This document shows positions 6,146 to 59,308 of a stretch of 64,000 nucleotides of DNA, piece by piece (within the stretch, counting starts at the first letter, position 1; every line of letters begins with the position of its first letter). A program made the translations under genes and the position numbers. Source of the DNA: an uncultured Gammaproteobacteria bacterium (GTDB lineage Bacteria; Pseudomonadota; Gammaproteobacteria; Arenicellales; JAANXG01); assembly GCA_947259705.1 (NCBI GenBank), contig CAMYNL010000013.1:75073-139072 (forward strand). The letters are read 5' to 3'. The notes beneath the pieces are model-generated. The model did no database searches. It was not told where the DNA came from and was given only the letters and a program-made list of their open reading frames with translations.

Positions 6146-6171
6146 ATAACGGGCGGTTTCGGCGTGACGAA

Positions 6172-9051: not shown

Positions 9052-9056
9052 TCTAG

Positions 9057-10454
9057 GTGCGGCAGCTTTGGCTGGACCGGCTGCTCGACGCGGTCGCCGA
9101 CCGTGGCCGCGACCTGCTGCACCCTCACGGCAGTCGAGGCTCCCGGCAGTCCGTCGACGAGCTGTGCCGGCGGCTATTGGCGGGTCATGGCGAGGCCTCT
9201 GCGATCGCCCTGGCGCGGGACATCCTGCGGCGCTACCAGGGCATGGACCACGGGACGCGCGCCGAATTCTTCCATACCCTGTTGCGGGACTTCGGCCCCG
9301 ACCCGCAACAGATCAGGGAATGCGCCGACCGCTATCTGGCGTCGCCGAACGACGGTCACGCGCTGATGCGTCTTGTCCAGGTGGTAGAGCCGCCGCGGCA
9401 GGAACTGTTCCGGCGCCTGAACATGGCGCCTCGTGGCACTGCGAGCCTGGTTGCCATGCGAGCGGATCTGCTGCGCCTGTTGGGCGACCATCCGGTCTTG
9501 CTCGCGGTGGATGCCGATCTTCGGCACTTGCTGGCATCGTGGTTCAATCGGGGATTCCTGCGCCTGGAGCGAATCGATTGGCGAACCCCGGCCCAGGTTC
9601 TGGAGAAATTGATCCAGTACGAATCCGTCCACGAGATCAAGGGCTGGAACGACCTGCGCCGCCGGCTTGCGCCAGATCGGCGCTGCTTTGCGTTTTTTCA
9701 TCCCGCACTGCCGGACGAACCACTGATCTTCGTCGAGGTGGCCCTGAGCCGGGAAGTGGCTGCAGAGATCGGCCCGCTCATCTCACAGGATGCGCCAGTG
9801 CAGGACGTGCATGACACTGACACCGCCGTCTTCTATTCCATCAACAATGCCCAGGAGGGGCTGCGGGGGATCTCTTTCGGCAATTTCCTGATCAAGCAGG
9901 TGCTGACCGAGCTGCGGACCGAACTTCCGCACCTGAGGACCTTCGTCACCCTGTCTCCCATGCCCAGATTTACGCAGACCATCGAGGAGATGCTGTCCGG
10001 TAGATCGGACCTGGGCGTGAATCGCGCACAGCTCGATCAGGTACTGCAGGATGACATGCGCGATGTAATGGTTCCCGACCGCGACGGACCCCTTGCATCA
10101 CTGGCGGTGCTGGCGGAAAAGATGGATCGTCCGGATCCCAGGCTGTATCCCCCTATGCGCCATGTCGCGCTGGCCTACCTGACGCTGATGCGCTGCGGCG
10201 GCGACATCTGTGATCCCGTGGCGGCTTTCCACCTTGCCAATGGGGCATCTTTGGAGTGCATCAACCCGTTCGCGGATGTTTCCGTTCATGGCCGCGCCCA
10301 GAGTTTCGGTTGCATGGTCAACTACCGCTACGAGCCGGACAGGTTGGAGGAAAATCACGAGGCCTACATCAATGAGAGCCGGATCGTCATGTCGAAGACT
10401 GTGGCCAGGGATCTAGACGGGCTCAAGGACCGGATCGGCTCGCGGACCGGCTGA
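9057..10454 (+). CDS. Malonyl-CoA decarboxylase (MCD family), high-GC copy, apparently intact
   Basis: Same MCD blocks as the first copy ([78 protein letters not shown]). Identity to the 4796-6145 copy is only about half by eye. Confidence 0.9.
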   Translation: MRQLWLDRLLDAVADRGRDLLHPHGSRGSRQSVDELCRRLLAGHGEASAIALARDILRRYQGMDHGTRAEFFHTLLRDFGPDPQQIRECADRYLASPNDGHALMRLVQVVEPPRQELFRRLNMAPRGTASLVAMRADLLRLLGDHPVLLAVDADLRHLLASWFNRGFLRLERIDWRTPAQVLEKLIQYESVHEIKGWNDLRRRLAPDRRCFAFFHPALPDEPLIFVEVALSREVAAEIGPLISQDAPVQDVHDTDTAVFYSINNAQEGLRGISFGNFLIKQVLTELRTELPHLRTFVTLSPMPRFTQTIEEMLSGRSDLGVNRAQLDQVLQDDMRDVMVPDRDGPLASLAVLAEKMDRPDPRLYPPMRHVALAYLTLMRCGGDICDPVAAFHLANGASLECINPFADVSVHGRAQSFGCMVNYRYEPDRLEENHEAYINESRIVMSKTVARDLDGLKDRIGSRTG

Positions 10455-13006: not shown

Positions 13007-14550
13007 CTGCGGAACTGGAACCGGCCTTCGCCAGGCTTCATGAATGGGCGCGTCAGGCGCAGCAGGGCGGATGGCTGAGCAGGGCGGACGTGCAGGAGAT
13101 GGGGCGTATAGAACGCCAGAACGCGGACGAGTTGTTTGCCGCCGGCAAGCCGCGGCCGTTACTGGTGGGGCTGTTCGGCGGCACCGGGGTGGGCAAGAGC
13201 AGTCTGCTCAACCGCCTGGCCGGGGAGAACATCGCCCGGGTGGGCGCGGAGCGGCCGACGTCGCGGGAAGTCACGCTCTATCTGCACCAGGACCATGCCC
13301 TCGAATCATTGCCCCCGGAGTTTCCGCTGGCCCGTACCCGGATCCAGTATCATCACGACCGGCAACGCCGTGACATCGCCTGGATCGACATGCCGGACAT
13401 CGACAGCACGCACAGGGCGAACCGTGAACTTGTGTTCGCCTGGCTGCCGTACATCGACTGGCTGATCTACGTAGTGAGCCCGGAACGGTATCGCGACGAC
13501 GCCGGTTGGAAGGTGCTGCGCGAGCGTGGACACAGGCACGAATGGCTGTTTGTCATCAACCACTGGGACACCGCCGAGCCGGAGCAGTATGACGCCTTCG
13601 TTTCCGACCTGGCCGGCGCCGGTATCGACCGGCCCAGGGTGTTGCGTACCAGCTGCACGATCGACTGTGAAGAGGACGAGTTTGCGCGGCTGGAAGAACT
13701 CATACGAAACGCCATCGAACAACATGGTCTGGAGGAACTCAAGCGACTCGGTATCCTGGCGAAACTGCGCGACCTGGCACAGCTGAGCGATGATTTCCGC
13801 TCGCGCCTGGGCAGCGAGGAGGCGTGGCAGACGGTTTGCGGGCGAATCCGGGAACGCTCGGGCAATATCCTGTCTCGCCTGCGGCAGTCGCTGGCCTGGT
13901 CGTTTGCGCTCATCTCCGGCCGGTTCCCGGAGCCCCGCCGCGGCTGGCGCGACAAGGGCGGTATGCGGCAGCGCAATATCCCGGCCGCGGATGAGCTGCG
14001 CGCGGCGATCTGGGGGCCGCAGGCGGATAGCTATGTTGCCGATGTGGTCAACGAGGCGGTGGTGGCCGCCGCGGAAAACGGCGTCCCGGTGGAGCCAGTG
14101 GAACGGGCAGTGGGGGTGATGGCCCGGCAGGTGCCCGGGTTGGTCACCGAGATTTCGTTGTCCCGCCTGCGGCAGGCGCTGCTGAAACCGGGACCTGCCT
14201 GGCAGCGGGCCCTGTTCCGGCTGACCGGGGCTCTGCGCAGGGTATTGCCCGCGGCGGCTGCTGCATGGGCGGTATATCACCTGGTAACCCGTTTTCACGC
14301 GGGAACCACGGGGCGGGGCGAGTTGCTGGGGCTGGACTTCGCGGTCCACAGTTTCGTGCTCATCTCCTGCGCCTGGTTGCTGCCCTACCTGATGCACCGC
14401 CTGTCCAAACCGTCACTGCGCAAGGCTGCGCGACGCGGCCTGGAACAGGGCGCCGCCGCTGCCATTCAGCAGTCTGAACAGGAGTTGGCCTCAGTACTGG
14501 AGAAGCTGGGAGAGGAGCGCCGGCAGCTGCTGCTGCAACTCAAGGATTGA
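13003..14550 (+). CDS. Dynamin-like GTPase, partner 2 (515 aa) with C-terminal hydrophobic hairpin
   Basis: P-loop GGTGVGKSS, IAWIDMPDIDS and NHWD (degenerate G4). Helical stalk, then predicted membrane hairpin AAAAWAVYHLV...FAVHSFVLISCAWLLPYLM and a terminal coiled segment. Paralogous to partner 1 (shared D.PD.DS ... V.S.E.Y.D ... N..D spacing). Confidence 0.8.
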   Translation: MTAELEPAFARLHEWARQAQQGGWLSRADVQEMGRIERQNADELFAAGKPRPLLVGLFGGTGVGKSSLLNRLAGENIARVGAERPTSREVTLYLHQDHALESLPPEFPLARTRIQYHHDRQRRDIAWIDMPDIDSTHRANRELVFAWLPYIDWLIYVVSPERYRDDAGWKVLRERGHRHEWLFVINHWDTAEPEQYDAFVSDLAGAGIDRPRVLRTSCTIDCEEDEFARLEELIRNAIEQHGLEELKRLGILAKLRDLAQLSDDFRSRLGSEEAWQTVCGRIRERSGNILSRLRQSLAWSFALISGRFPEPRRGWRDKGGMRQRNIPAADELRAAIWGPQADSYVADVVNEAVVAAAENGVPVEPVERAVGVMARQVPGLVTEISLSRLRQALLKPGPAWQRALFRLTGALRRVLPAAAAAWAVYHLVTRFHAGTTGRGELLGLDFAVHSFVLISCAWLLPYLMHRLSKPSLRKAARRGLEQGAAAAIQQSEQELASVLEKLGEERRQLLLQLKD

Positions 14551-46595: not shown

Positions 46596-48197
46596 GTGGG
46601 CCCGGCGCCGGCGATGCTTAGTCCGTCGGCAAGGTGTTTCAAATGTTCCGGCGACACTGACAGCAGCCGCCTGCGATCCCGGCTGGCGGGACATTTCGAT
46701 ATGGTCAGCGAGGGTGGGGGAGCGCTGCGTTTGACTTTCTACGATAGCTTCGACTGGCGGCTGCACCGCGCCGGTCTCAGCCTCCGTCTGGAGCAGCCGT
46801 CGCGGCGTCCGGCCAAACTCTGCTGTGCCCGGCAGGGGACCGGCGAGGAAGACTGCCAAGACGTGGCTGCTGTGCCCAGGTTCGCTGACGACCTGCCGGC
46901 AGGACGGCTGCGGACGCGGCTGCAGCAGGTAGGCGGGATCCGCGCCCTGTTGCCGCTGGTGACGTTGCGCGGGTGGCGCTATCGGTACGCGGTGCGCAAC
47001 GAGGACGGCAAGATGGTCGCACGTTGTTATCTCGAGCAGTGGCGGCCGGCCAGTCGGCGCTACGCCGGGTCAGCCCCGGTGGGTCTGGTGCGGCTGGAGC
47101 CGCTGCGCGGATACGAGGTGGATACCGCGGCGGTCGCTGAGCTGCTGCGCGGGGAGGAGCTGGAACGGACCGGTATCGACCTGTTGCAGACGGCCCTGGA
47201 GCTGGTCGGCCGCGTGGCGGACGATTATTCTTCCAAGTTGGACGTCAAGCTGCAACCGGAAGAGGATGCGGTGGTGGCGGTGAGGCGCTTGCTGCGCAGC
47301 CAGGTCGATGTCATGCGCGCCAATGAGGCAGGCATACGGCATGACCTGGATTCGGAATTCCTGCACGACTTTCGGGTCGCGGTGCGTCGCACCCGCTCAG
47401 CGCTGTCTCAGATCAAGGGTATCTTTGCCGAACCGGCGCTGGCCCCGTTCCGCGACGGATTTGCCTGGCTGGGGGCGGTCACCGGGCCCAAACGCGACCT
47501 GGATGTGCACCTGCTGCAGTTTCCCGAGCAGCAACGGCTGCTGGCGCCAGGGCAGTCTGCCGACCTGCTTCCGCTGCGGCTGCTGCTCGAGCAACAGCAG
47601 GCGGCTGCGGGGGCAGAGGTGGTCGCGGCCCTGAAGAGCGCGCGCTATCGCCGGCTGATGCGGTACTGGCAGACCTTTCTTGACCAGGGCGGAACCGAGT
47701 TCGATGGGGCGAATGCGAGGCAGCCGGCGGCGGGGGTGGCGAACAGTCGCATCTGGCGCGTGTACCGGCGGGTACGCCGCGAGGGTCGCGCCATCAGCGC
47801 TGACTCACCGCCGGCGGACCTGCACGAACTTCGCAAGAGCTGCAAGAAACTGCGCTACTTGATGGAGTTTTTTCAGAGCCTGTATCCGCGCAACAAGATG
47901 CGACGCGCCATCTCCCACCTCAAGGACCTGCAGGAGAACCTGGGTCAATATCAGGACCAGACGGTACAGCTGGCAAACCTGCGCAGGCACAGCGAGGAAC
48001 TGGCGGCGCGAGGGGGCGAAATTCCGGTGCCGACGCTGCTGGCGATTGGCGCCCTGATGGACCGGATCGCCGGGGCACATCAGCAAACCCGCGCCGGCTT
48101 TGCGCGCCGTTTTGCTGCCTTCTATACGCCGGCCAATCATCGTCTGTTCAGGGAGTTGTTCCACACCAGGGGGCCATCGATGGCAGACCAGCCGTGA
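46596..48197 (+). CDS. CHAD domain protein with degenerate CYTH-like N-terminal domain
   Basis: Central-to-C-terminal CHAD helices (FLHDFRVAVRRTRSALS, LHELRKSCKKLRYLMEFF, LQENLGQYQD). The N-terminal ~200 aa is a beta-rich CYTH-like region (LRLTFYDSFDWRLHRAGLSLRLE) in which I see no ExExK motif. Start is uncertain. Confidence 0.8.
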   Translation: MGPAPAMLSPSARCFKCSGDTDSSRLRSRLAGHFDMVSEGGGALRLTFYDSFDWRLHRAGLSLRLEQPSRRPAKLCCARQGTGEEDCQDVAAVPRFADDLPAGRLRTRLQQVGGIRALLPLVTLRGWRYRYAVRNEDGKMVARCYLEQWRPASRRYAGSAPVGLVRLEPLRGYEVDTAAVAELLRGEELERTGIDLLQTALELVGRVADDYSSKLDVKLQPEEDAVVAVRRLLRSQVDVMRANEAGIRHDLDSEFLHDFRVAVRRTRSALSQIKGIFAEPALAPFRDGFAWLGAVTGPKRDLDVHLLQFPEQQRLLAPGQSADLLPLRLLLEQQQAAAGAEVVAALKSARYRRLMRYWQTFLDQGGTEFDGANARQPAAGVANSRIWRVYRRVRREGRAISADSPPADLHELRKSCKKLRYLMEFFQSLYPRNKMRRAISHLKDLQENLGQYQDQTVQLANLRRHSEELAARGGEIPVPTLLAIGALMDRIAGAHQQTRAGFARRFAAFYTPANHRLFRELFHTRGPSMADQP

Positions 48198-48961
48198 AAA
48201 CCATCGCCATCTACAGTATCAAGGGCGGCGTCGGGAAGACCGCGGCGGCGGTCAACCTGGCCTATCTTTGCGCCCAGGACGGCGCCCGCACCCTGCTCTG
48301 GGACCTGGACCCTCAGGGCGCCGCGTCGTTCTACTACCGGGTGAAGGCGAAGGTCAAGGGGGGCGCCCGGGGGCTGCTGCAACGCAACGGAGAACTGCCT
48401 GGTCGTATCAAGGCCACCGACTTTCCCAACCTCGACTTGCTACCCGCCGATCTTTCCTATCGCCACATGGACCTGTTGCTCGATGAATCGAAAAAGAGAA
48501 AACGCGCATTCGGCCGCTTACTGGAACCCCTTACCGACGACTACGACTACATCTTCATGGATTGTGCGCCGAGCGTGACCCTGGTGTCGGAGAATGTCTT
48601 TCGTGCCGCCGACCTGATCATCAGCCCGGTGATACCGACAACGCTGTCGGTGCGGACATTGAACCAGTTGTCCGCTTTTATGGAACATCCCAAGCTCCGC
48701 GATGTGCGGGTAATGAGCTTTTTCTCCATGGTGGACGGGCGCAGAAAACTGCACCGCGAGATCATGGAGAATCTGTCGCAGCGCCGCAAAGGCATCCTGC
48801 GGAGCTATATTCCGTATTCCAGCGACGTTGAGCGGATGGGGATACGGCGTGCGCCACTGCCCGAATTCGCCGGCCGCAGCGCGGGCGGGCATGCCTTCAG
48901 GCTGCTGTGGCGGGAAATCAAGGCCCGGATAGAAGACGGTGGCGACGGAAATAGAGCGTAA
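48194..48961 (+). CDS. ParA/MinD-family P-loop ATPase
   Basis: Deviant Walker A IYSIKGGVGKTAAAVNLA, LLWDLDPQGAAS and Walker B IFMDCAPS. Its GTG overlaps the CHAD gene stop (GTGA). Confidence 0.9.
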   Translation: MKTIAIYSIKGGVGKTAAAVNLAYLCAQDGARTLLWDLDPQGAASFYYRVKAKVKGGARGLLQRNGELPGRIKATDFPNLDLLPADLSYRHMDLLLDESKKRKRAFGRLLEPLTDDYDYIFMDCAPSVTLVSENVFRAADLIISPVIPTTLSVRTLNQLSAFMEHPKLRDVRVMSFFSMVDGRRKLHREIMENLSQRRKGILRSYIPYSSDVERMGIRRAPLPEFAGRSAGGHAFRLLWREIKARIEDGGDGNRA

Positions 48962-49409
48962 ATTCCTCGTCGTGGGCGAGCACTGGAGAGACCAGGCGTC
49001 GCGCAGTGAGCGCTACCGCCAGGGATATCTTGCGGTCAACGAGCACTGCGGGGTGCGGGTGCGCATGGCGGGGAAATCGGCGACCTTGAACGTCAAGAGC
49101 GCGGGCCTGGATATCTGTCGGCAGGAATTCGAATATGCAATACCGCCCGGGGACGCACGGGCCATGCTAGACCAACTGTGTGGTGGCATGGAGCTCAGCA
49201 AGACGCGGTACATCATCAGGCATGCAGGGCATACCTGGGAGGTGGACGAATTCGACGGCGCCAATGCAGGACTGGTGCTCGCGGAGATCGAATTGCGGAC
49301 CGCGGATGAACAGTTCGCGCGGCCGGATTGGCTGGGGGAAGAGGTGTCGGGTGACGCACGTTACCTGAATTCCAACCTGGTTCGGAACCCATACCGTCAA
49401 TGGCGGTGA
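48939..49409 (+). CDS. Stand-alone CYTH (triphosphate tunnel metalloenzyme) protein
   Basis: N-terminal EIERKFLV is the catalytic ExExK motif, within a ~155 aa CYTH fold. Its GTG start overlaps the ParA gene by 23 nt. Confidence 0.85.
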   Translation: MATEIERKFLVVGEHWRDQASRSERYRQGYLAVNEHCGVRVRMAGKSATLNVKSAGLDICRQEFEYAIPPGDARAMLDQLCGGMELSKTRYIIRHAGHTWEVDEFDGANAGLVLAEIELRTADEQFARPDWLGEEVSGDARYLNSNLVRNPYRQWR

Positions 49410-49577
49410 CGCGTGCCACCGATCGGCGAGGGAGTTTTGAATCAGCGTCGAAGGCCTTAAAATATCGCAGCCGGGCGGGGACCGCCGCGGTTATCGTCGA
49501 CTGGACCTTGTTGCAGGGACGACAAACAAGAACTTTCGCGATGAGCGCCGGTGGTGCACGCTGGCGGGAGTAACCTG

Positions 49578-50222
49578 ATGAGCTACGAGAATCTTCGCGG
49601 AGCCCGATTCCTGGGCGCGTACGCATTACCATTGTTGCTGTTGTCGGGCGCGGCCGCGCACGCCACGCCCGGGGGGTTCTACCTCGGCGGCTCGATTGGT
49701 CAGGCCGAACTGTCGGATCTCGGTGAACTCGAAACCGCCTGTGTTGTCGCCGGTGTCCAATGCGTGACCGACGACAGTGATACCGCGTATCGGATCTTCG
49801 CCGGCTACCAGTTCGGGGGTTACTTTGCCCTCGAAGGCGGTTATGTGAATCTCGGTGAACAGCAGACCGGCGTAGATGCGCCCGTACTGGCTGATGCGTC
49901 GCTGGAGACCAATGGCGGTTTTCTGGCCCTGTTGCCGCAGTTCCCCGTCGGACAGCTCGGCGCCGTCTATGGCCGGCTGGGACTCTACGTCGGGGACGCG
50001 ACCCTTACCGCGCGGGTGCCTGCGTTCGGGTTCGACGAGAGTGACGGTGGCACGGTGGCGGGGGTGTCGTTCGGATTCGGAGGTGCCCTTAACTTCGGCC
50101 GTGTCTCCGTCCGTGTCGAGTGGGAGCGGTTCAGTTTCGACGAGGCATTCACCATCGCCGGGGAGGACATCGATGCGCCGGACCTCGACGTCATAACCGG
50201 GAGCGCTCTGGTGCGCTTCTGA
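49578..50222 (+). CDS. Outer-membrane beta-barrel (OmpA-N / porin-like) protein
   Basis: Signal peptide ending AAHA, alternating beta-strand pattern with YRIFAGYQF and GGYVNLG, and a C-terminal ...ALVRF with terminal Phe. Confidence 0.75.
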   Translation: MSYENLRGARFLGAYALPLLLLSGAAAHATPGGFYLGGSIGQAELSDLGELETACVVAGVQCVTDDSDTAYRIFAGYQFGGYFALEGGYVNLGEQQTGVDAPVLADASLETNGGFLALLPQFPVGQLGAVYGRLGLYVGDATLTARVPAFGFDESDGGTVAGVSFGFGGALNFGRVSVRVEWERFSFDEAFTIAGEDIDAPDLDVITGSALVRF

Positions 50223-50429
50223 CCCCGCTGCCGGTCGCCCGGCACGCTGGCTGGTCCGGCCGCATGGCAGTGCCCGCTGCCCCGACGCGCGGGAGGTGCG
50301 AGTGTGCCGTGGCGGTGGGGTATCGCCCGGGCATACGTGGGCCGCGCAATGCCGCTACAATAGCGCTTCCGAGCGGCCCACACGCCGCGTCCACCATGTT
50401 CAAAACCGTATACGTACTGGCAGGTTCCG

Positions 50430-53400
50430 TTGGCCATTCATGTCGCTATCCATCACCAGACCGAGTACCGGTATGACCGGCTGATAAAACTGTCGCCGCA
50501 GGTGATGCGCCTGCGTCCGGCGCCCCACAGTCGCACCCCGATTATTTCCTACTCTCTGAAGGTGGAACCCGCGGACCACTTCGTGAACTGGCAGCAGGAC
50601 CCGTTCGGTAACTTCGTCGCCCGCTTCGTGTTCCCCGAACGCACCCGGGCCCTGCGCATAGACGTGGACCTGGTGGCCGACATGACGGTCATCAATCCTT
50701 TTGATTTCTTCATCGAGGAATACGCCGAGACGATGCCTTTCCGGTACGAGGCGCAGCTCGCGCGCGAGCTGGCGCCGTACCTGGAGATCCGCGAGCGCGG
50801 TCCGCTGCTGCAGCAGTGGCTGGGCGCCACGGACCGCAGCGAGCAGCACGTAGTGGATTTTCTGGTCGCACTCAATCAGAGACTGCAGGGAGACATCGGC
50901 TATCTGATCCGCATGGAACCCGGCGTACAGAGCTGCGAGCACACGCTCGAGTCCAGTTCCGGATCTTGTCGTGATTCGGCCTGGCTGCTGGTGCAGATAC
51001 TTCGCCACCTGGGTCTGGCTGCCCGCTTCGTCTCCGGTTATCTGGTTCAGTTGACCGCTGACGTCAAGGCGCTTGACGGGCCCTCGGGACCGGAACAGGA
51101 CTTCACGGACCTACACGCCTGGGCGGAGGTCTACGTGCCGGGCGCCGGCTGGCTGGGACTGGATCCGACCTCCGGTCTGTTCGCCGGCGAGGGCCACATC
51201 CCGCTTGCCTGTACGCCGGATCCATCCGGTGCCGCGCCCATCACCGGGGCCGGCGATCCCTGCGAGGTGGAGTTCTACTTTCACAACCGCGTCACCCGGA
51301 TACACGAAGACCCGCGGGTCACCAAGCCTTACCGGGAGGAGCAGTGGCGGGCGATCGACGAGCGGGGCGCCGCGGTGGATGCAGATCTGCAGCAGGCAGA
51401 CGTGCGCCTGACCATGGGTGGTGAGCCGACCTTCGTTTCCATCGATGACATGGAGGGTGCCGAGTGGAACACCGCCGCCCTCGGTGACGACAAACGACAC
51501 CTGGCAGGGAAGCTCTTCGACCGGTTGTGCGCGTGTTTCGCACCGGGCGGACTGCCACAGTTCGGGCAGGGCAAATGGTATCCGGGGGAACCGCTGCCGC
51601 GCTGGGCCATGTCGTGCTACTGGCGGGAGGACGGCGTTCCACTGTGGAACGACCCGCGCTGGCTGGGCCGCCCGGCCGCAGCCGGTGTTGGCAGTGGAAT
51701 CGATGAAGCCGAGCGAATGCTGCGCGCCATTGCCGCGCAGCTTGACCTCAGCGAACGCTTTGTGATCCCGGCCTACGAAGACCCGGCTCATCAGCTATGG
51801 AACGAGGGCAACTTGCCGGTCAATCTCGATCCCACCAGGGCAGGTCTCACGGATTCCCTGGAACGGCGCCGGCTGGCACGGCTGCTGGAACAGGGGTTGG
51901 ACCGGCCGGCAGGCCTGGTACTGCCGCTCAAGTATCGCGATCGATGGATGAGCAGCCGCTGGCCGCTGCGCCGCGAGCATTTGTACCTCATCCCCGGCGA
52001 TTCGCCGCTGGGCCTGCGCCTGCCGCTGGACAGTCTGCCGTGGCTGGCGCCGGCGGCGCGCGAGCTGGTGCCGGAGACCGACACCTTCGCGGTGCGCGAC
52101 CCGCTGCCGGTACCCCACGCCGATGCGGCGCCACATCGGCCGGCGCAAGAGCCTGCGCATGAACCGCCGCCGCCGGCCGAGGTGGTGCACACCGCGGTCT
52201 GCGTGGAGCCCCGCGGCGGCTGTCTGTACGTGTTCCTGCCGCCGTTGCAGGAGCTGGAGGAATTCGTAGCCCTGGTGGGTGCCGTCGAAGCCGCGGCCAG
52301 GGAGCAGCAGTTGGCGGTGGTGCTGGAAGGCTACCCGCCGCCCGCCGATACGCGCTTGAAAAGGTTTTCCATCACCCCTGATCCGGGGGTAATCGAGGTC
52401 AACGTGCAACCGGCGGCAAGCTGGCGCGAACTGGTGGAGAACACGCGGGTGCTCTATCGGGAGGCGCGCGAGAGCAGGCTGGGCACCGAGAAGTTCATGC
52501 TGGACGGCCGCCACACCGGCACCGGCGGCGGCAACCACGTGACGCTGGGCGGGCCGACCGCCGCGGACAGCCCCCTGCTCAGGCGGCCCCACCTGCTGCG
52601 TTCACTGGTTACCTACTGGCAGCACCATCCGGCGCTGTCCTACCTGTTCTCCGGGGCCTTCATCGGCCCCACCAGCCAGGCACCCCGGGTCGACGAGGCC
52701 CGCGACGACAACCTCTATGAACTGGAAATCGCCTTTCAGCAGCTGCCGGCCGGGGACTGCGATCACCCCTGGCTGGTTGACCGGGTGCTGCGCAATCTGC
52801 TGGTGGACCTGAGTGGAAACACCCATCGTACCGAGTTCTGCATCGACAAGCTCTATTCGCCCGACGGTCCGTCGGGGCGCCTGGGGCTGCTGGAGTTCCG
52901 TGCCTTTGAGATGCCGCCGCATTGGCAGATGAGCGCAGTGCAGATGCTGCTGCTGCGGGCACTGGTGGCGCTATTCTGGGGCTCACCGTATCACCATGAC
53001 CTGATTCGCTGGGGCACGGAACTGCACGATCGCTTCATGCTGCCTCACTACGTTGCGTCAGACCTGCGCGAGGTGGTGGCGGATCTGCAGGGCAAGGGGT
53101 TAGATTTTTCGCACGGCTGGTTCGCGCCGTTTCTGGAATTCCGCTTCCCGGTTTACGGTCGGATCACCGCCATGGATATGGAACTGGAGCTGCGCTATGC
53201 GCTGGAGCCCTGGCACGTGCTGGGCGAGGAGGTGAGCGCGCAGGGCACGTCGCGCTTCGTCGACTCCTCGCTGGAGCGCCTGCAGGTGCGTGTCAACGGC
53301 ATGGTGCCGGATCGCTATGTGGTGGCCTGCAACGGCCGCCGGGTGCCGTTGCGGCCGACCGATCGCGAGGGCGAGTACGTGGCGGGGGTCCGTTACAAGG

Positions 53401-53684
53401 CCTGGCGCCCGTCCTCGGGACTGCATCCCACCATCGACGTGCATGCGCCGCTGGTGTTCGATATCGTGGACGCCCGCAACCAACGGTCCGTGGGTGGCTG
53501 TACCTATCACGTGGCGCATCCGGGCGGGCGCAACTACGAGACCTTCCCGGTCAACGCCAACGAGGCGGAGGCGCGCCGGGTGGCCCGGTTTTGGAACCAT
53601 GGGCACACCCCGGGGCGGATGGCGGTGCCGGAGGACCGGCCGCCCGCTGACCATCCATATACCCTGGACCTGCGGCGTGGTTGA
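50430..53684 (+). CDS. Large transglutaminase-family protein (Bact_transglu_N + transglutaminase core + DUF2126)
   Basis: IHVAIHHQTEYRYDRLIKLSPQVMRLRP N-domain and catalytic Cys region GSCRDSAWLLVQILRHLGLAARFVSGY. A ~750 aa DUF2126-type extension follows. The apparent start is TTG. Confidence 0.9.
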   Translation: MAIHVAIHHQTEYRYDRLIKLSPQVMRLRPAPHSRTPIISYSLKVEPADHFVNWQQDPFGNFVARFVFPERTRALRIDVDLVADMTVINPFDFFIEEYAETMPFRYEAQLARELAPYLEIRERGPLLQQWLGATDRSEQHVVDFLVALNQRLQGDIGYLIRMEPGVQSCEHTLESSSGSCRDSAWLLVQILRHLGLAARFVSGYLVQLTADVKALDGPSGPEQDFTDLHAWAEVYVPGAGWLGLDPTSGLFAGEGHIPLACTPDPSGAAPITGAGDPCEVEFYFHNRVTRIHEDPRVTKPYREEQWRAIDERGAAVDADLQQADVRLTMGGEPTFVSIDDMEGAEWNTAALGDDKRHLAGKLFDRLCACFAPGGLPQFGQGKWYPGEPLPRWAMSCYWREDGVPLWNDPRWLGRPAAAGVGSGIDEAERMLRAIAAQLDLSERFVIPAYEDPAHQLWNEGNLPVNLDPTRAGLTDSLERRRLARLLEQGLDRPAGLVLPLKYRDRWMSSRWPLRREHLYLIPGDSPLGLRLPLDSLPWLAPAARELVPETDTFAVRDPLPVPHADAAPHRPAQEPAHEPPPPAEVVHTAVCVEPRGGCLYVFLPPLQELEEFVALVGAVEAAAREQQLAVVLEGYPPPADTRLKRFSITPDPGVIEVNVQPAASWRELVENTRVLYREARESRLGTEKFMLDGRHTGTGGGNHVTLGGPTAADSPLLRRPHLLRSLVTYWQHHPALSYLFSGAFIGPTSQAPRVDEARDDNLYELEIAFQQLPAGDCDHPWLVDRVLRNLLVDLSGNTHRTEFCIDKLYSPDGPSGRLGLLEFRAFEMPPHWQMSAVQMLLLRALVALFWGSPYHHDLIRWGTELHDRFMLPHYVASDLREVVADLQGKGLDFSHGWFAPFLEFRFPVYGRITAMDMELELRYALEPWHVLGEEVSAQGTSRFVDSSLERLQVRVNGMVPDRYVVACNGRRVPLRPTDREGEYVAGVRYKAWRPSSGLHPTIDVHAPLVFDIVDARNQRSVGGCTYHVAHPGGRNYETFPVNANEAEARRVARFWNHGHTPGRMAVPEDRPPADHPYTLDLRRG

Positions 53685-53771
53685 GCCCGAAATACGCGGC
53701 GGCGGGAGTTGTATAGGCGGCCGCGAATGTGTTGTAAACTTATCAGAGTTTGGGGAGTGGAATCTGCCTTT

Positions 53772-54527
53772 ATGACGTACTGCGTCGCTATCACCGTAAA
53801 CCGGGGTCTGGTCTTCGCCTCGGATTCGCGCACCAATGCGGGTGTCGACCAGCTCAGCACCTATAGCAAGATGTTCACCATCTGCGTTCCCGGGCAGCGC
53901 GCGTTCGTGGTACTGACGGCCGGCAACCTGGGTACCACGCAGGCGGTCATCAACCGGGTGAGGGCGGATATCAAGAAGGGCGCGCCGACCAGCCTGCACA
54001 CCGTCGAAAGCATGTCCGAGGCCGCGGAATACGTCGGCGAAATCAGCCTCAACCGGCAGCACAAGACCACCGGTGTCTCCGCGGGCCAGCTGGATTCCAG
54101 CGCCAGTTTCATCCTTGGCGGCCAGATCCGCGACCGCAATCCAAAGGTGATGATGATCTATCCGGAAGGGAACTTCATCGTCGCCACGCGGGAAACCCAG
54201 TACCTGCAGATAGGCGAAGTGAAATACGGCAAGCCCGTCCTCGACCGCATCATCACGCCGGAAACCAGCCTGGAAGAGGCCGCGCTTTGCGCCATGGTCT
54301 CGATGGACTCCACGATGCGCTCAAATGCCACGGTCGGCCCGCCGGTGGAGGTACTGATATACGAGAAAGACAGCTTCCAGCTGGACCAGCATTTCACCTT
54401 CGGTACCGACGATCCTTATCTTTTGGATCTCAAGCTGGCCTGGGATCGCAAAATCAAGGAGGCCTTCTCGGAACTCACACGGTTCAACTGGCAGCGCGCC
54501 GAACGCCGGCGAGCCGAAGGTGAATGA
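53772..54527 (+). CDS. Anbu (ancestral beta-subunit) proteasome-type peptidase
   Basis: MTYCVAITVNRGLVFASDSRTNAGVDQLSTYSKMF: Thr directly after the initiator Met, in an Ntn-hydrolase proteasome beta fold. Confidence 0.9.
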   Translation: MTYCVAITVNRGLVFASDSRTNAGVDQLSTYSKMFTICVPGQRAFVVLTAGNLGTTQAVINRVRADIKKGAPTSLHTVESMSEAAEYVGEISLNRQHKTTGVSAGQLDSSASFILGGQIRDRNPKVMMIYPEGNFIVATRETQYLQIGEVKYGKPVLDRIITPETSLEEAALCAMVSMDSTMRSNATVGPPVEVLIYEKDSFQLDQHFTFGTDDPYLLDLKLAWDRKIKEAFSELTRFNWQRAERRRAEGE

Positions 54528-55512
54528 AACGCAGTTTCTCCGTCACGACGTCGTTGATAACGAAGGGGTAGGCGTCACGCAGCCCCATGCTGCGGTTGAG
54601 TTCGTTTAACACCACGGCGAAGCGCCGCCAATCGTCCATCCAGGTTTCGACAAGGAAGGGCTCGTCGTCCAGTCGTATCAGCTCATGTGCCGCCGCCGTC
54701 TGCAGACAATCCGTAATGTGCAGGTAATGCGCCCAGGTCTCGGCCCAGTCCTCGTGGGGGTGGGCGGCGGCGTAGGCGCTCAAGTGGCGGTCGCGCCAGT
54801 CCGCAGCCGGCCCGGAGCCGTAATACCCTTCCAGGGCCGCGTCGTAATCGCTACGTTCGTCGCCGAATAACGAGCGAAACGCGTTCAGCGCGTCATCGTC
54901 GTTGATCAGGTAGTCGAAGTAGTAGTGCCCGCTCTCGTGCCGCAGATGGCCTAGCAGAGTACGGTACTGCTCGTTCATGTGCTTGCGGGCCATTGCCCGC
55001 AGTACGTCGTCGGCCTCGGTGACGTTGATGGTGATGATTCCGCCCTCGTGGCCAGTCACCACCCGTTCTTCCTCGACCGCCGGGTTGCCGCGACGGTCTT
55101 CGATGAAGTCGAACGCCAGGCCGAAGGGCCAGCCGCGGGCCTTGCTCTGAATGGGCAGCCCCAGTTCCAGCAGCGAAAACAACAACCTGCGTTTCGCCAC
55201 CTCCAGGCTGTTCCAGTATTCTTGGTTGGCCGGCGCAGTCAGGTTGGGGATGGTGCGGTTCAGGCGGCACGAGACGCAATACGCGTCGCGATCCTCGACC
55301 GTGACCAGCCAGTTGCAGTTGGAGAAATCGAGTCGGTTCTTGCAGTGGCGGAACCGGCGCCCGGCACTATCCGCCAGTACCCCGCCGTCAATCGTTAGCA
55401 GGGAGAGCAGATTGCGGGTGGCGGGGTCGAAACCGATCGTGGTGCCGCAGGCGAGGCATTCAGTGTTCTCGAAGAAGATTTGTTCGCCGCAGCGACAGCT
55501 AAACCGCTTCAT
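54484..55512 (-). CDS. Putative zinc-binding metallopeptidase with N-terminal zinc ribbon
   Basis: MKRFSCRCGEQIFFENTECLACG zinc ribbon and an HESGH (HExxH) motif. Its start overlaps the alpha-E gene end by 14 nt. Confidence 0.85.
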   Translation of the reverse strand: MKRFSCRCGEQIFFENTECLACGTTIGFDPATRNLLSLLTIDGGVLADSAGRRFRHCKNRLDFSNCNWLVTVEDRDAYCVSCRLNRTIPNLTAPANQEYWNSLEVAKRRLLFSLLELGLPIQSKARGWPFGLAFDFIEDRRGNPAVEEERVVTGHEGGIITINVTEADDVLRAMARKHMNEQYRTLLGHLRHESGHYYFDYLINDDDALNAFRSLFGDERSDYDAALEGYYGSGPAADWRDRHLSAYAAAHPHEDWAETWAHYLHITDCLQTAAAHELIRLDDEPFLVETWMDDWRRFAVVLNELNRSMGLRDAYPFVINDVVTEKLRFIHLRLAGVRRAAS

Positions 55513-56343
55513 GCAACTCCGGCAGGAACCAGGCCTCCGTGATCAGCCGGTGGACCTGTCCGAGTTCTTCCTGCAGTTCATCGAGGAACCGATGACTGTC
55601 CCCGCCTACCACCGCCGCGCTGTAGGTTTCCGCCACGATGCGTTCCAGGCGCGCCACCGCGCGCAGAGGGGCATCGTTGTGTGGCAGTTTTTCCAGACAG
55701 TCCTGGATCTGCAGCAGACTGTGGGCGAAGGCGCGGGGGAACCCGGTGTCGTGGAGCAGGAAGCCGAAAACGCTGTCACGGCGGATGCGGCGCCGTATGT
55801 TCTGCCGATACATCTGGTGGCCGCTCACCGCGCGCAGGACATTCATCCACAGACGGTTCTCCAGGCGCTCCAGTTCGCCGCCGGGGGCCACCAGGGTGGC
55901 GGAACCGACGTCCAGGATACGGGTGGTCATGTCGGCACGTTCCAGATTGCGGCCCAGGCGCACGAAATGATATCCGGCGCCGTGACTCATGGTGCCCGTC
56001 AGCAGCCCGGTGATCTGCTGGCAGTGCATGACGATGCTGGACATGACCTCGTGCAGGTTCTGGCGCAGTCCGCCGCCGCGGTGAGGCTGTTCAACAACGA
56101 ACCGGGGTTTCTCTCGTCCACCAGGACGAACTTGATGATGCGCTGCTCGCCCGCACGGTCATACGCCTTGCCAAACACTTCGCGGCTGCCGGTGATGTCG
56201 ATGACCTGACGCCAGTGCAGGCCCACACCCCTGGGCAGGTCCAGCATGAGGTTGCCGTACACGTTGATGATACGCGCAGTATTCTCCGCCCGTTCCAGAT
56301 ATCGCGCCATCCAGTACAGGCGCTCGGCTACGCGCGAAAGCAT
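55499..56343 (-). pseudogene. Alpha-E (DUF403) domain protein, split by one frameshift
   Basis: The N-terminal part (56343-~56085) reads MLSRVAERLYWMARYLERAENTARIINV...SLLNSLTAA. The rest (GGLRQNLHEVMSSIVMHCQQITGLLTGTMSHGAGYHFVRLGRNLERADMTTRILDV...) continues in another frame. The switch lies in the GCGGCGGCGG run near 56070-56085. Confidence 0.8.
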
Positions 56344-57794
56344 CAGGCGGGTTCCGTGTCCACGATCCAGGTGTCTTTGCTGCCGCCACCCTGAGACGAA
56401 TTGACCACCAGCGAGCCGCGCGTGAGCGCGACCCGGGTAAGGCCGCCCGCCGTCACGTAGCTGCGTTCACCCTGGAGTATGAATGGCCGCAGGTCGACGT
56501 GGCGGGGTTCCAGCCTTCCCTGGCACAAGGTGGGCGCGGTGGACAGGGAGAGCACCGGCTGCGCGATATAATTGCGCGGTGAGCGCTTGATCAGACCGGC
56601 AAACTTCTTGCGCTCCGCCGGCGTCGAGTGGGAGCCCACGAGCATGCCGTAGCCGCCGGACTCGTTGGCCGGCTTGACCACCAAGTCCTTCAGGTTGTTG
56701 ATAACGTACTCCCGTTGCTGCTTGTCCTGGCAGCGATAGGACGGCACGTTGGGGATGATCGGGTCCTGGTCCAGGTAATACTTTATGATGTCGGGGACAA
56801 ACGTATACACCACTTTGTCGTCGGCGACGCCGGCGCCTGGTGCGTTGGCCAGCGCCACCTTGCCGGCCTTCCAGGCGCGCAGCAGCCCGGGCACCCCCAG
56901 CGCGGAGTCGGGAACAAACGCGTCCGGATCCAGGAACTCGTCGTTGATGCGACGGTAAATCACGTCCACCTGCTGCGGTCCGTCAACCGTACGCATGTAA
57001 ACACAGTCGTCGTCGCCGACGGTCAAGTCACTACCCTCCACCAGTTCGGCGCCCATCTGCTGCGCCAGGTAGGAGTGTTCGAAATAGGCCGAGTTGTAGA
57101 TACCCGGGGTGAGTACGACTATCTCGGGATAGTCCAGCGGCCGGGGCGACAGCGACGCCAGCATGTCGAACAGGTGGGCCGGGTATTCGTCGACCGGCAG
57201 TATGCGTTGTTGACGGAACAGTTCCGGGAATACCCGTTTGGTCACGCTTCGGTTTTCGATCATGTACGACACACCCGAGGGCACGCGCAGATTGTCCTCC
57301 AGTACGTAAAAGGTTCCATCCTTGTCGCGTACCAGGTCGGAACCGCAGATGTGGGCCCAAACACCGTAACGGGGTTTGGCGCCGCGGCATTGCTTCAGGA
57401 AGTGTTTGGAGGTCTTGAGGATCGCGGTCGGAAATACCTTGTCCTTGACGATGCGCTGATCATTGTAGAGATCGTCGATGAACATATTGAGCGCGGTCAC
57501 CCGCTGTTCGAGACCTTCGGATACCTGCTTCCACTCTTTCAGGGAGATAATGCGGGGGATGATGTCGAACGGCCAGGCGCGGTCGATGTTTTCACCGTCG
57601 CTGTATACGGTGAAAGTGATCCCCATCTCGGCGATCGCCAGGTCCGCGGCGCGCTGACGGCGGTTCAACTGCTGGTCGCTCAGGGAGCGGAGATATTTCG
57701 CCAGCCCGCGCGAAGGCGCGCGCGCATAGCCGGGGGTACTGATGGTCTCATCATAGCATTCACCAGGTTTGTAACTGGTCCAGTCGATGCGCAT
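56343..57794 (-). CDS. Circularly permuted ATP-grasp type 2 protein (DUF404/DUF407)
   Basis: 483 aa with family-typical blocks (RPLDYPEIVVLTPGIYNSAYFEHSYLAQQMG, VDVIYRRINDEFLDP, ALANAPGAGVADDK). Its stop overlaps the alpha-E start (ATGA). Confidence 0.9.
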   Translation of the reverse strand: MRIDWTSYKPGECYDETISTPGYARAPSRGLAKYLRSLSDQQLNRRQRAADLAIAEMGITFTVYSDGENIDRAWPFDIIPRIISLKEWKQVSEGLEQRVTALNMFIDDLYNDQRIVKDKVFPTAILKTSKHFLKQCRGAKPRYGVWAHICGSDLVRDKDGTFYVLEDNLRVPSGVSYMIENRSVTKRVFPELFRQQRILPVDEYPAHLFDMLASLSPRPLDYPEIVVLTPGIYNSAYFEHSYLAQQMGAELVEGSDLTVGDDDCVYMRTVDGPQQVDVIYRRINDEFLDPDAFVPDSALGVPGLLRAWKAGKVALANAPGAGVADDKVVYTFVPDIIKYYLDQDPIIPNVPSYRCQDKQQREYVINNLKDLVVKPANESGGYGMLVGSHSTPAERKKFAGLIKRSPRNYIAQPVLSLSTAPTLCQGRLEPRHVDLRPFILQGERSYVTAGGLTRVALTRGSLVVNSSQGGGSKDTWIVDTEPA

Positions 57795-58024
57795 AGAGAC
57801 AGGGCCTTAGCGGATAGTGAGTTGGATCGACTGTAAGCGGTCATGGCAGGCTTCGCAAGCGCCACCGCTGGAGGTGCGGGGGCGCACCAGGCGGTCGCGT
57901 CATGCCGGGCGGGGAAGCGACGCCGCCACCGGTGAACGGATGGACCACGGCCGCAGTCCAAGCCGTGGGGGCGGATGGTTTTGGCGATGGTGCACGGTCG
58001 GAGACGGAAATCGAGTGGTGAGGA

Positions 58025-59308
58025 ATGAAGCAACAGGCTGAACGCCCCAAGGCGGCCGAACTGCGGGAGCGTGGCGGCTACAGCGTCGTGGACGGCAGTG
58101 CGCTGGCCGCTATGCTGCCGCGATGGCAGGGCGTCACGCGACCGCGGCCCGGGCCGCAGGCCGTGCTGGAAGCGGTGGTGCGCCTGCGCGGCGCGGCGCT
58201 GCCGTTCTCGGCGCTGGAGCGTGACATCCTGAGCGCCCGGGTGTTGGAGTATGCGCCGGAGTATCTGGACCGGCTCTGCGCTGACGGCATCATCACCTGG
58301 CAGGGTTGCGAACGCATCGGGGAACGCGACGGCCGTGTGGCGCTTTACCTGCGCGGCGACATGCCGGCACTGGGGCGGATCCGGGTGCCGGAAGCGGGGA
58401 AGCCCGCCGCCGCCATTCGCGATCTGCTGGCGCGGCAAGGCGGGATGCTGTTCGCCGAAATCACTGCAACGCTGGGCGGGTTTCCCCCTGACCTGCTGCG
58501 GGCGTTGTGGAGGCTGGTGTGGAACGGAGAGGCGAGCTGCGACACGCTGGCGCCGCTGCGCTCATTGCGCGGCATCCGTGGCCGGCGCAGGGCTCACAGG
58601 GCCGGATCACGGTCCCGTCGCGTCGCCGCAGCGGGATCCGACGGGCGCTGGTCTCTGATCGCGGGTCCTGATCGGGGTTTTGCCGCACCCGAGGCGCGCA
58701 TGGCGGCGCTCGCGCGGTCACTGCTCGACCGTTACGGGGTGCTGACGCGGGAGCTGATCACCGCCGAGGATGTTCCCGGCGGCATCGGCAGCCTGAGGCC
58801 GGCGCTGGAGCGGCTGGTGGATGCCGGCGAGCTGTGGCGCGGGGAGTTCATCGCCGGCGCGGGCGCTGAGCAGTACGCCCTGCCGGCGGCCTGCGCAAGC
58901 CTGCAACCATCGCAGTTGGATGATGACGTAGAGCTCGTCGTCCTGGCGGCCACCGATCCAGCCAATGCGTACGGCACCGCCCTGCGCTGGCCGCACACCG
59001 CGGCTGTGCTGAAACCGCAACGGGCGGCGGGCGCACGGGTGATACTGCTGGGAGGCGAGTTGCTCGCCTACCTCGATCGGACCGGCCATTCGCTGCTGAC
59101 ATTTGTCGATGAAACGGATCCGCGGCGGGGTCGCAAACTGGCCCGACTGGCCGGGGTGCTCGCGCGGTTGGCGCGAAACGGGGAGGCCCTGTTGATAGAA
59201 CAGGTGAACGACACCTCGCCGGACACGACGGCGCTGGGTGGCCCACTGCGCGAGGCAGGATTCAGGGCGTCGAGCCGGGGGCTGCTGTGTCGGCCGCGGC
59301 GGGACTGA
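58025..59308 (+). pseudogene. lhr: C-terminal ~420 aa of an Lhr-type large helicase (helicase core missing)
   Basis: LPRWQGV...LRGAALPFSALERDILSARVLEYAPEYLDRLCADGIITWQG...DGRVALYL, LRALWRLVWNGEASCDTLAPLRSL and LLDRYGVLTRELI...LERLVDAGELWRGEFIAGAGAEQYALP match the post-helicase WH/CTD regions of Lhr. No DEAH/RecA domains lie upstream; the ATP-grasp gene starts at 57794. Confidence 0.65.

Follow-up and report, generated by a model that had tools for sequence, protein, structure and literature searches.

Does the cluster of ATP-grasp, alpha-E, transglutaminase and Anbu genes on contig CAMYNL010000013.1 of an uncultured gammaproteobacterium depart from the known organization of the Anbu system, and what might such a cluster do? 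Anbu has been known since 2008 and several of its crystal structures have been solved; to our knowledge, no substrate, partner or function has been assigned to it. Iyer et al. 2009 is reportedly the primary comparative-genomics description of the system, and the Pfam family Peptidase_Mx is said to derive from the same work. A sequence-only reading of the window, i.e., of the whole 64,000-nucleotide stretch analyzed here, described the cluster as an unusual convergent layout to which a second peptidase and a giant transglutaminase had been added.

The families themselves are readily recognized. All four canonical families lie within 50430-57794, alpha-E as two fragments, and Pfam searches confirm the five gene families of the sequence-only reading, including the Zn-peptidase, at the coordinates of Table 1; in NCBIfam, none of the five proteins received a name at the family level. 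The canonical co-directional four-gene order is absent: the genes form two convergent units, with the Peptidase_Mx (hereafter Mx) gene inserted after alpha-E. The proposed translational coupling on the minus strand is real, as the ATP-grasp stop and the alpha-E start have one base in common in TGATG, and the end of alpha-E overlaps the start of Mx by 14 nt. Equally real is the proposed overlap of the 3' ends of the two units.

Table 1. Features of the Anbu locus, in window coordinates
Feature	Positions	Strand	Product or extent	Basis
Transglutaminase-DUF2126 fusion	50430-53684	+	1084 aa, TTG start	Pfam
Anbu-1	53772-54527	+	251 aa, ATG start	Pfam Proteasome and PDB matches
Overlap of Anbu (+) and Mx (-) 3' ends	54484-54527		44 nt	
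Zn-ribbon and Peptidase_Mx, putative zinc metallopeptidase	54484-55512	-	342 aa	Pfam
Alpha-E, C-terminal part	55499-56073	-	Listed ORF 55499-56044, 181 aa	Pfam 9e-43
Alpha-E, N-terminal part	56074-56343	-	ORF 55999-56343, 114 aa	Pfam 1e-29
Alpha-E gap junction	56074/56073		97-nt gap relative to near-identical contigs	
Circularly permuted ATP-grasp	56343-57794	-	483 aa	Pfam and PDB 3n6x

The plus-strand ORF at 53709-54527 belongs to the Proteasome family (Pfam); its true start is the ATG at 53772 (MTYCVAIT...), as called in relatives. In phmmer searches of the PDB, the protein matches 5loy (E 2e-73, query residues 2-240), Pa-Anbu 5lox (2e-62), and the further Anbu structures 5nyw, 5nyj and 5nyf, with E-values overall from 2e-73 to 4e-60. 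Alignment of MTYCVAITVNRGLVFASDSRTNAGVDQLSTYSKMF to Pa-Anbu places a Thr right after the start Met, with no propeptide, and identifies the catalytic residues Thr1, Asp17 and Lys32 (for the roles of the catalytic Thr, Asp17 and Lys32/33, see PMC5666114, PMC6376114); the claimed Anbu identity and the Thr after Met are thus borne out. An open split ring or helical dodecamer would be the assembly expected of such a protein. The S1 pocket, T20/Y30/T48/L52/T55, is of the Anbu-1 type and differs by two conservative changes from that of Pa-Anbu, T20/F30/T48/L52/S55 (PMC5666114). An apparent Anbu-kinase "fusion" (P0123), found on a 1.8-kb contig at 1.2x coverage, was rejected as probably chimeric.

The ATP-grasp matches the CP_ATPgrasp_2 profile over its entire length (1e-163, positions 1-374 of 374) and CP_ATPgrasp_1 at 2e-133 (PF04174/PF14403). 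Its closest solved relative, PDB 3n6x (E 6.5e-154), was deposited as a "putative glutathionylspermidine synthase"; the only activity reported is the release of phosphate from ATP by the Y. bercovieri protein (PMC6376114). In the sampled loci the ATP-grasp is always paired with alpha-E, the two being fused in six (L015, L026, L066, L085, L106, L154). The 1084-aa protein is confirmed by Pfam as a transglutaminase-DUF2126 fusion (Bact_transglu_N 4e-27, Transglut_core 4e-17, DUF2126 1318 bits). Residues ~1-270 form a transglutaminase-like cysteine-peptidase module, in which Cys180, His229 and Asp245 are invariant across 18 homologues. For this module, PDB 3isr (a putative cysteine protease) was matched at Foldseek E 5e-8 and profile E 5e-4; in the canonical operon its counterpart is the short transglutaminase-like protein. 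DUF2126 (~276-1082) is matched over its full profile and described by Pfam as a putative amidoligase; it gave no Foldseek or PDB profile match, and the AlphaFold model of the whole protein is of low confidence (pLDDT 61). The 1084-aa length is also called in same-species contigs. Calling this protein a notable giant is unwarranted, since it is very common: it has at least 8000 relatives, of which the best 120 are 63-71% identical.

The zinc-peptidase claim holds at the family level. The Mx protein combines an N-terminal double zinc ribbon (Zn_ribbon_DZR_6, 4e-24) with a Peptidase_Mx domain (PF15887, 9e-95 over 1-234 of 236), and its motifs H192-E-S-G-H196 and H251-P-x-E254-D-W-A-E258 are retained across 16 homologues; H192, H196, E254 and E258 do not vary, and E193 is present in 15 of the 16 sequences. 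No PDB relative was found by sequence or profile search. The AF2 model (pLDDT 85) best resembles M34 zincins (anthrax lethal factor and PPEP-1), and this match is weak (Foldseek E 0.02, probability 0.63). Judging by these alignments, the catalytic residues of Anbu, the transglutaminase module and Mx are intact.

How exceptional is the layout? The comparison of gene order that the sequence-only reading had recommended was run on 80 species genomes centered on Mx and on 80 metagenome loci centered on Anbu. Mx and Anbu occur together at one locus in 20 of the former and 25 of the latter, and in all 45 shared loci they are convergent, 42 times directly tail-to-tail and mostly with overlapping 3' ends. 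A 44-nt overlap recurs in eight other loci (L011, L014, L017, L018, L038, L042, L052, L091), other overlaps measure 4-65 nt, and the shared segment encodes the C-terminal ends of both proteins, which are not conserved. Two layouts prevail, each tracking its own clade in the Mx phylogeny. Type 1, ATPgrasp>alphaE>Mx> <Anbu, is complete in at least 12 loci of the genome sample and present in 11 metagenome loci, while the sister type 2, Mx> <Anbu ATPgrasp>alphaE>, accounts for 17 further loci. Even the exact five-gene order of the window recurs, in GCA_024644045.1 (L168), where Mx is only 60% identical and the flanking genes are different. Thus, the departure from a co-directional operon is true of this locus, but it is common among relatives, and the epithet "unusual" does not stand. 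Mx, likewise, is not an addition but a regular component, found with the system in several phyla whether Anbu is present or not. Gene order across these samples points to the tail-to-tail layout with a zinc peptidase as a common inherited arrangement in Gammaproteobacteria, and to linkage of the two convergent halves as conserved across genera. Because the layout is common to dozens of genomes, the window adds nothing categorically new.

The association is not obligatory for Mx. About half of its homologues in the Mx-centered genome sample are solitary genes, ORFs at six such loci included no obvious conserved partner, and Pseudomonas species carry an unlinked Mx homologue. Text searches of two Anbu structure papers (PMC5666114, PMC6376114) found no mention of a metallopeptidase. 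As for shared control of the two halves, a search for sigma-54 promoters (TGGCAC-N5-TTGCW, up to 2 mismatches) found no match in either upstream intergenic region and a window-wide count at chance, so we make no claim of NtrC/sigma-54 control. Predicted sigma-70 promoters and terminators in 49400-58600 did not exceed shuffled controls; co-regulation of the halves is therefore not supported here.

The state of alpha-E calls for separate consideration. Its family identity is secure for both parts (Table 1), but the sequence-only reading missed a frameshift. The PF04168 match is divided between two ORFs in different frames (profile positions 1-94 and 124-294) instead of forming one continuous full-profile protein of ~310 aa, and past the junction the N-terminal frame reads unrelated residues until a stop at 55999. 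Alignment to near-identical contigs reveals a missing segment of 97 nt (~32 codons) that shifts the frame. Thus, the gene measures 845 nt in the window versus 942 nt in five same-species metagenome contigs (L002-L006, ~99.6% identical to the window), which encode an intact 313-aa protein. Up to the junction, the N-terminal part is identical to L001 and L002. In a MAG 99.99% identical to the window, the ends of contigs L001 and L007 fall inside the missing segment. Alpha-E is broken in this particular sequence, and this copy may therefore be non-functional. Given the intact near-identical contigs and the position of the MAG contig ends, the gap reflects either a deletion at the strain level or an artefact of joining.

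If the deletion is real, the module would be decaying in this strain: alpha-E would be a pseudogene and the ligase arm lost (perhaps Mx translation too, through its coupling), with the remaining genes retained. We regard this as possible but rather doubtful. The gap removes ~32 conserved residues, and no other indel interrupts the ~19.5 kb compared, which is otherwise clean. A population mixed at this site would be expected to produce a contig break, and an independent, near-identical MAG breaks at this very position; that break, however, fits equally well a window made by the faulty join of two contig ends. Five same-species assemblies retain the intact gene, and the other genes of the module are all intact. 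Moreover, an exact-product look-up found the 114-aa product on record nowhere else, and the deletion allele thus gains no independent support. A genuine break would provide a natural loss-of-function allele in an environmental population.

In our opinion, the locus is somewhat more probably than otherwise a chromosomal copy of the ATP-grasp/alpha-E/transglutaminase/Anbu system in the "type 1 Mx" arrangement, inherited as a stable module; the transglutaminase-DUF2126 gene directly upstream of Anbu preserves the canonical transglutaminase-then-Anbu order. A mechanism can be outlined tentatively, with about one chance in three of being correct: ligation by ATP-grasp/alpha-E, followed by dismantling of the product by three hydrolases. 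The ATP-grasp, acting with alpha-E, would use ATP to form an acyl-phosphate and join an amino acid or a short peptide to a carboxylate on a protein or peptide, with a second step of amide formation perhaps contributed by DUF2126. Removal or trimming of the adduct might fall to the transglutaminase-like Cys peptidase and to the Mx zinc peptidase; TGL domains have been predicted to reverse peptide tags made by ATP-grasps (PMC3495828). Oligomeric Anbu would then degrade the marked polypeptide. The setting is probably protein and nitrogen turnover, because in P. putida nitrogen limitation induces the homologues: on nitrate versus ammonium, PP_2685 (Anbu) and PP_2688 (ATP-grasp) show ~16-fold induction (PMC8050072; also PMC3235984). 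Counting against the mechanism are the weak Mx fold match, the lack of a structural match for DUF2126, the promoter and terminator scans at chance level, the many solitary Mx homologues, the broken alpha-E of the window, and the module's content, which includes no AAA unfoldase, tag gene or precursor gene. We also know of no substrate, tag or product for any member of the system, which weighs on the same side. Purified Anbu, furthermore, has displayed neither peptidase activity nor a stable complex with its operon partners (PMC5666114, PMC6376114). The view that the system's function is still unsolved agrees with the literature, as none is given in PMC5666114, PMC6376114 or PMC8665760.

Some of these observations would suit a different product. 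The module might make and break down a small non-ribosomal amide or peptide metabolite (e.g., a gamma-glutamyl or polyamine conjugate, or a nitrogen reserve) in place of a protein tag, its peptidases recycling the compound. The name under which 3n6x was deposited, the amidoligase description of DUF2126, the absence of a tag or substrate gene, the response of homologues to nitrogen limitation (PMC8050072), and the inactivity of Anbu on standard proteasome substrates (PMC6376114) are all consistent with such chemistry. Nevertheless, we consider it unlikely: Anbu assembles into large oligomers bearing many active sites, and Pa-Anbu binds peptide-like proteasome inhibitors at Thr1 (PMC5666114), both of which point to polypeptide substrates, and a single small molecule would hardly call for three types of peptidase. 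The ATP-grasp family of the window presumably includes Rv2567 and Rv2411c of Mycobacterium tuberculosis. Neither enzyme produced the single metabolite assayed (bioRxiv 10.64898/2026.04.15.718621), a result that says little generally; the study concerns a different ATP-grasp (Rv1722), assigns the family no function, and was set aside as a source of function. It is also conceivable that the two convergent units are functionally unrelated neighbors brought together by chance, since no shared promoter or regulator site was found and members of each family also stand alone in other genomes. This we judge very improbable, as Mx and Anbu keep one relative orientation in 42 adjacent loci from many genera, the module is conserved amid different flanking genes, the layout tracks the Mx phylogeny, and the canonical operon also joins ATP-grasp and alpha-E to Anbu (PMC3235984, PMC6376114).

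If, as we prefer, the locus is an inherited Anbu module, the place of Mx in it deserves attention. By gene neighborhood, Mx is the tightest and most invariant neighbor of Anbu-1 in a broad gammaproteobacterial set, tighter than the transglutaminase gene. It could be a dedicated working partner of Anbu-1 (a processing enzyme, activator or substrate-delivery factor), a notion that we consider quite improbable at present; if so, the omission of Mx from all in vitro studies would account for the inactivity of purified Anbu. The tail-to-tail overlap, itself conserved, may couple Mx and Anbu expression via antisense transcription or transcriptional interference. The Mx-Anbu linkage is in any case a concrete lead, suggesting proteins to co-express in attempts at Anbu reconstitution and cultured carriers in which to work, such as Marinimicrobium locisalis or a Gilvimarinus sp.

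Type 1 Mx-Anbu modules (L008-L018, L029, L030, L038, L052, L054, L168-L170) agree with the window in gene order and orientation and in many cases in the 44-nt overlap, and the five-gene order of L168 is identical; most type 1 loci, however, have no DUF2126 gene next to Anbu, and L013 and L076 place it between Mx and Anbu. In type 2 modules (L021, L050, L068, L102-L138), unlike in the window, the ATPgrasp-alphaE pair is divergent from Anbu. Anbu-less clusters of DUF2126, ATPgrasp-alphaE and a short transglutaminase (Burkholderiales and Bacteroidota loci L041, L044, L053, L066, L085) contain the same ligase and transglutaminase families, often with Mx adjacent, but their genes are mostly co-directional and ATP-grasp and alpha-E are often fused. 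We take the mycobacterial Rv2566-Rv2569c region to be of this type. The Pup-proteasome of Actinobacteria combines the ATP-dependent amide ligase PafA, a mark-reversing hydrolase and a proteasome-family Thr peptidase. The module resembles it by analogy only, its chemistry being predicted from genes; it has no Pup-like tag gene, AAA ATPase or alpha subunit, and its ligase is an ATP-grasp, not a glutamine-synthetase-like PafA.

The closest reference remains the canonical Anbu operon (ATP-grasp COG2308, alpha-E COG2307, transglutaminase COG1305 and Anbu), as in P. aeruginosa PA1733 and P. putida PP_2685-PP_2688 (PMC3235984, PMC5666114, PMC6376114, PMC8050072). In the window, by contrast, ATP-grasp and alpha-E are encoded on the strand opposite to Anbu and run toward it, with a Zn-ribbon/Peptidase_Mx gene placed after alpha-E; the transglutaminase makes up the N-terminal part of a 1084-aa DUF2126 fusion, and alpha-E is frameshifted. 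Common to both are the four families, the Anbu-1 type with its catalytic residues and a near-identical S1 pocket, the translational coupling of ATP-grasp to alpha-E, and a transglutaminase module directly upstream of Anbu.

The module comprises five genes at 50430-57794, as delineated by the ORF listing and Pfam scans (see the table), and no second copy of any component is present elsewhere in the 64-kb window. Two genes, for a transglutaminase-DUF2126 protein and for Anbu, a proteasome-like Ntn hydrolase, lie on the plus strand; ATP-grasp, alpha-E and Mx, a putative zinc metallopeptidase, are encoded on the minus strand. The sequence-only reading had described such a five-gene cluster and assigned the families correctly, as judged by Pfam scans and PDB matches. 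The cluster is real, but that reading overlooked a frameshift in alpha-E. The stop codon of ATP-grasp and the start codon of alpha-E have one base in common, alpha-E extends 14 nt into Mx, and the 3' ends of Anbu and Mx overlap by 44 nt. The Anbu gene begins 87 nt 3' of the transglutaminase-DUF2126 gene. For Anbu, the ATG (MTYCVAIT...) is the biologically sensible start and is preferred over the listed TTG; the resulting 251-aa protein matches the length given by gene callers in relatives, and Thr1 directly follows Met, as had been claimed.

Module genes in the window, with coordinates and supporting matches
Feature	Coordinates	Strand	Evidence
Transglutaminase-DUF2126 protein, 1084 aa	50430-53684	+	Bact_transglu_N 4e-27; Transglut_core 4e-17; full-length DUF2126, 1318 bits
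Anbu, proteasome family, 251 aa	ORF from 53709 (TTG); preferred ATG 53772	+	Pfam
Mx (Zn_ribbon_DZR_6 + Peptidase_Mx)	54484-55512	-	Pfam 9e-95; HESGH at residue 192
Alpha-E, two ORFs between the ATP-grasp and Mx genes	55999-56343; 55499-56044	-	Pfam, profile 1-94 and 124-294, respectively
Circularly permuted ATP-grasp	56343-57794	-	CP_ATPgrasp_2, 1e-163

Several neighboring loci deserve mention. Just upstream of the module, genes for CHAD-domain, ParA-like (AAA_31) and CYTH-domain proteins (46596-49409) are followed by a gene for an OmpA-like barrel (49551-50222). This run is kept only in contigs of the same species and therefore probably does not belong to the system. A gene at 58025-59308, in divergent orientation to the ATP-grasp gene, encodes a stand-alone 427-aa protein that has Lhr helicase winged-helix domains WH3 and WH4 only and lacks the helicase core. 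Farther away, in the region 3486-10454, a DctM TRAP-transporter gene (3486-4799) is accompanied by two paralogous genes for malonyl-CoA decarboxylase (4712-6145 and 9057-10454). A tandem pair of genes for large GTPases (MMR_HSR1; a match to dynamin-like families is weak) occupies 11300-14550, their ORFs overlapping by 4 nt.

The gene arrangement was compared across relatives in two samples. The Mx-centered sample was obtained by scanning an alignment of Mx homologues against one genome per species, which gave 80 loci, annotated by phmmer with the window's proteins as queries; the Anbu-centered sample was obtained by scanning an Anbu alignment against metagenome contigs (80 loci, 42-66% identity). 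Mx and Anbu occur together in 20 of the 80 loci of the former and 25 of the 80 of the latter. In every one of these shared loci the two genes are convergent, and they are directly adjacent in 17 and 25 loci, respectively. Their 3' overlaps are typically 4-65 nt, the exact 44-nt overlap of the window recurring in at least eight other loci. The convergent layout, which the sequence-only reading considered unusual, is thus recurrent and clade-wide.

Two arrangements dominate the sampled loci. Type 1 (ATPgrasp>alphaE>Mx> <Anbu) is found in the window, in 12 complete genome loci, including those of Marinimicrobium, Gilvimarinus, Pseudohongiella and Woeseiaceae, and in 11 loci from metagenomes; Marinimicrobium locisalis ISL-43 and Gilvimarinus sp. 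E3M09 are cultured carriers of it. Type 2 (Mx> <Anbu ATPgrasp>alphaE>) is found in three genome and 14 metagenome loci. In a neighbor-joining tree of Mx each type has a clade of its own, solitary Mx genes falling between the two, and therefore each layout is a module passed on by inheritance and not an isolated rearrangement. The co-directional "textbook" order is seen in 2 of the 80 Anbu-centered loci, a sample biased to relatives of the window's Anbu.

In many type 1 genomes Anbu faces the operon alone, with no transglutaminase nearby. DUF2126 beside Anbu is common in the Anbu-centered sample, mostly on its downstream side (Anbu>DUF2126>, about 13 loci), and in two loci (L013 and L076) it sits between Mx and Anbu. 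All five genes at one locus are rarer; the exact order of the window recurs in GCA_024644045.1, with Mx 60% identical and entirely different flanking genes, and L169 and L170, the relatives that come next in closeness, show type 1 with four genes. Among Burkholderiales and Bacteroidota without Anbu, Mx lies alongside ATPgrasp-alphaE fusions, short transglutaminases and DUF2126. Mx, previously taken for an added second peptidase, accompanies related gene sets repeatedly, with or without Anbu.

About half of the loci in the Mx-centered sample, Pseudomonas among them, contain a solitary Mx. Seven Pseudomonas loci (L056, L063, L069, L071, L073, L074 and L083) have a Peptidase_Mx about 45% identical to that of the window and lack ATP-grasp, alpha-E and Anbu up to 10 kb away; this Mx is a candidate partner for P. 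aeruginosa Anbu. A contig assigned by binning to a Methanomethylophilaceae archaeon (L058) carries ATPgrasp-alphaE-Mx, its Mx being 46% identical to the window's, which reflects either misbinning or horizontal transfer. In a 421-aa protein (P0123, locus L171), protein-kinase domains are linked to an Anbu segment that shares 98% identity with the Anbu of the window across 73% of the query; the contig encoding it is 1.8 kb long, its coverage is 1.19x, and chimeric assembly is the most likely origin.

Individual proteins conform to known families. Anbu matches the designed consensus Anbu-1 (5loy, 2e-73) and P. aeruginosa Anbu (5lox, 2e-62) over almost its full length, and has Thr1, Asp17 and Lys32. 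Its S1 pocket (T20, Y30, T48, L52, T55) differs from that of Pa-Anbu (T20, F30, T48, L52, S55; Fuchs et al., PMC5666114) by conservative changes at two positions. For these reasons it appears from its sequence to be an ordinary Anbu-1. ATP-grasp matches 3n6x (6.5e-154). C180/H229/D245, the triad of the transglutaminase module, does not vary among 18 homologues, and this module corresponds to 3isr, a short transglutaminase-like "putative cysteine protease" (Foldseek 5e-8, profile 5e-4); therefore, the 1084-aa protein is the transglutaminase of the canonical operon with DUF2126 fused to it. This fusion, called giant in the sequence-only reading, has a very widespread and highly conserved architecture, with at least 8000 matches, the best 120 of which share 63-71% identity over the full length. 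The AlphaFold model of this protein is of low confidence (pLDDT 61), and structure and profile searches gave no PDB match for the DUF2126 part. Mx conserves four Cys pairs, HExxH and an HPxEDWAE motif among its homologues; its model is good (pLDDT 85), but the closest structural neighbors, M34 zincins, match weakly (E 0.02), and a sequence search found no PDB relative. Mx is therefore likely, not proven, to be a zinc peptidase.

The two alpha-E ORFs are in different frames. Exact-protein look-ups traced the same locus to five metagenome contigs from JGI (3300041024/41081/41083/41086/41087; identity to the window about 99.6%), all of which have an intact 313-aa alpha-E, and to two contigs of MAG GCA_945787095.1 (99.94% and 99.99%). 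Alignment to the intact gene shows that 97 nt are absent from the window, with the junction between 56074 and 56073, and this gap is the sole indel over about 19.5 kb compared. One MAG contig (L001) ends, and the other (L007) starts, inside the missing segment, the two overlapping each other by only 8 nt (AAAAAACT). These ends indicate either a polymorphic population with a real strain-level deletion or an artefact in which the window wrongly joins two such contig ends. An exact-product look-up found no record of the shortened protein elsewhere. At the species level, alpha-E is intact.

Previous studies found no peptidase activity of Anbu and no stable complex with operon partners (PMC6376114, PMC5666114), and a survey from 2021 still gives the function of Anbu as unknown (PMC8665760). 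Proteasome inhibitors modify Pa-Anbu at Thr1 (PMC5666114), the Y. bercovieri ATP-grasp hydrolyzes ATP to phosphate (PMC6376114), and in P. putida nitrogen limitation strongly induces the genes for Anbu and ATP-grasp (PMC8050072; PMC3235984, note added in proof). Transglutaminase-like domains are predicted by the Aravind group to be peptidases reversing peptide tags made by ATP-grasp (PMC3495828). In the sampled loci, ATP-grasp and alpha-E are always adjacent, often fused, and behave as one unit, followed by a peptidase gene (Mx, transglutaminase, or both). The whole is best, if tentatively, read as a cycle in which a ligase and hydrolases act on polypeptides. ATP-grasp and alpha-E, perhaps together with DUF2126, would form an adduct held by an amide bond; this would be trimmed or removed by Mx and the transglutaminase module; Anbu would degrade the marked substrate; and the cycle would serve protein and nitrogen turnover. 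We consider this outline less likely than not to be right. Its main rival is that the module makes and breaks down a small amide or peptide metabolite. Sigma-54, promoter and terminator signals around the module, and sigma-54 signals window-wide, do not rise above chance, and thus co-regulation of the two convergent halves is inferred from conserved linkage alone.

In our opinion, the transferable result is that Mx and Anbu are invariably paired tail to tail and show the most rigid linkage of any pair in the comparative data; this nominates Peptidase_Mx as a candidate partner for Anbu biochemistry. The module is a further example of a known, functionally unsolved system. Unlike the canonical Anbu operon, in which ATP-grasp, alpha-E, transglutaminase and Anbu are co-directional, it is organized in the window as two convergent units, with Mx following alpha-E.
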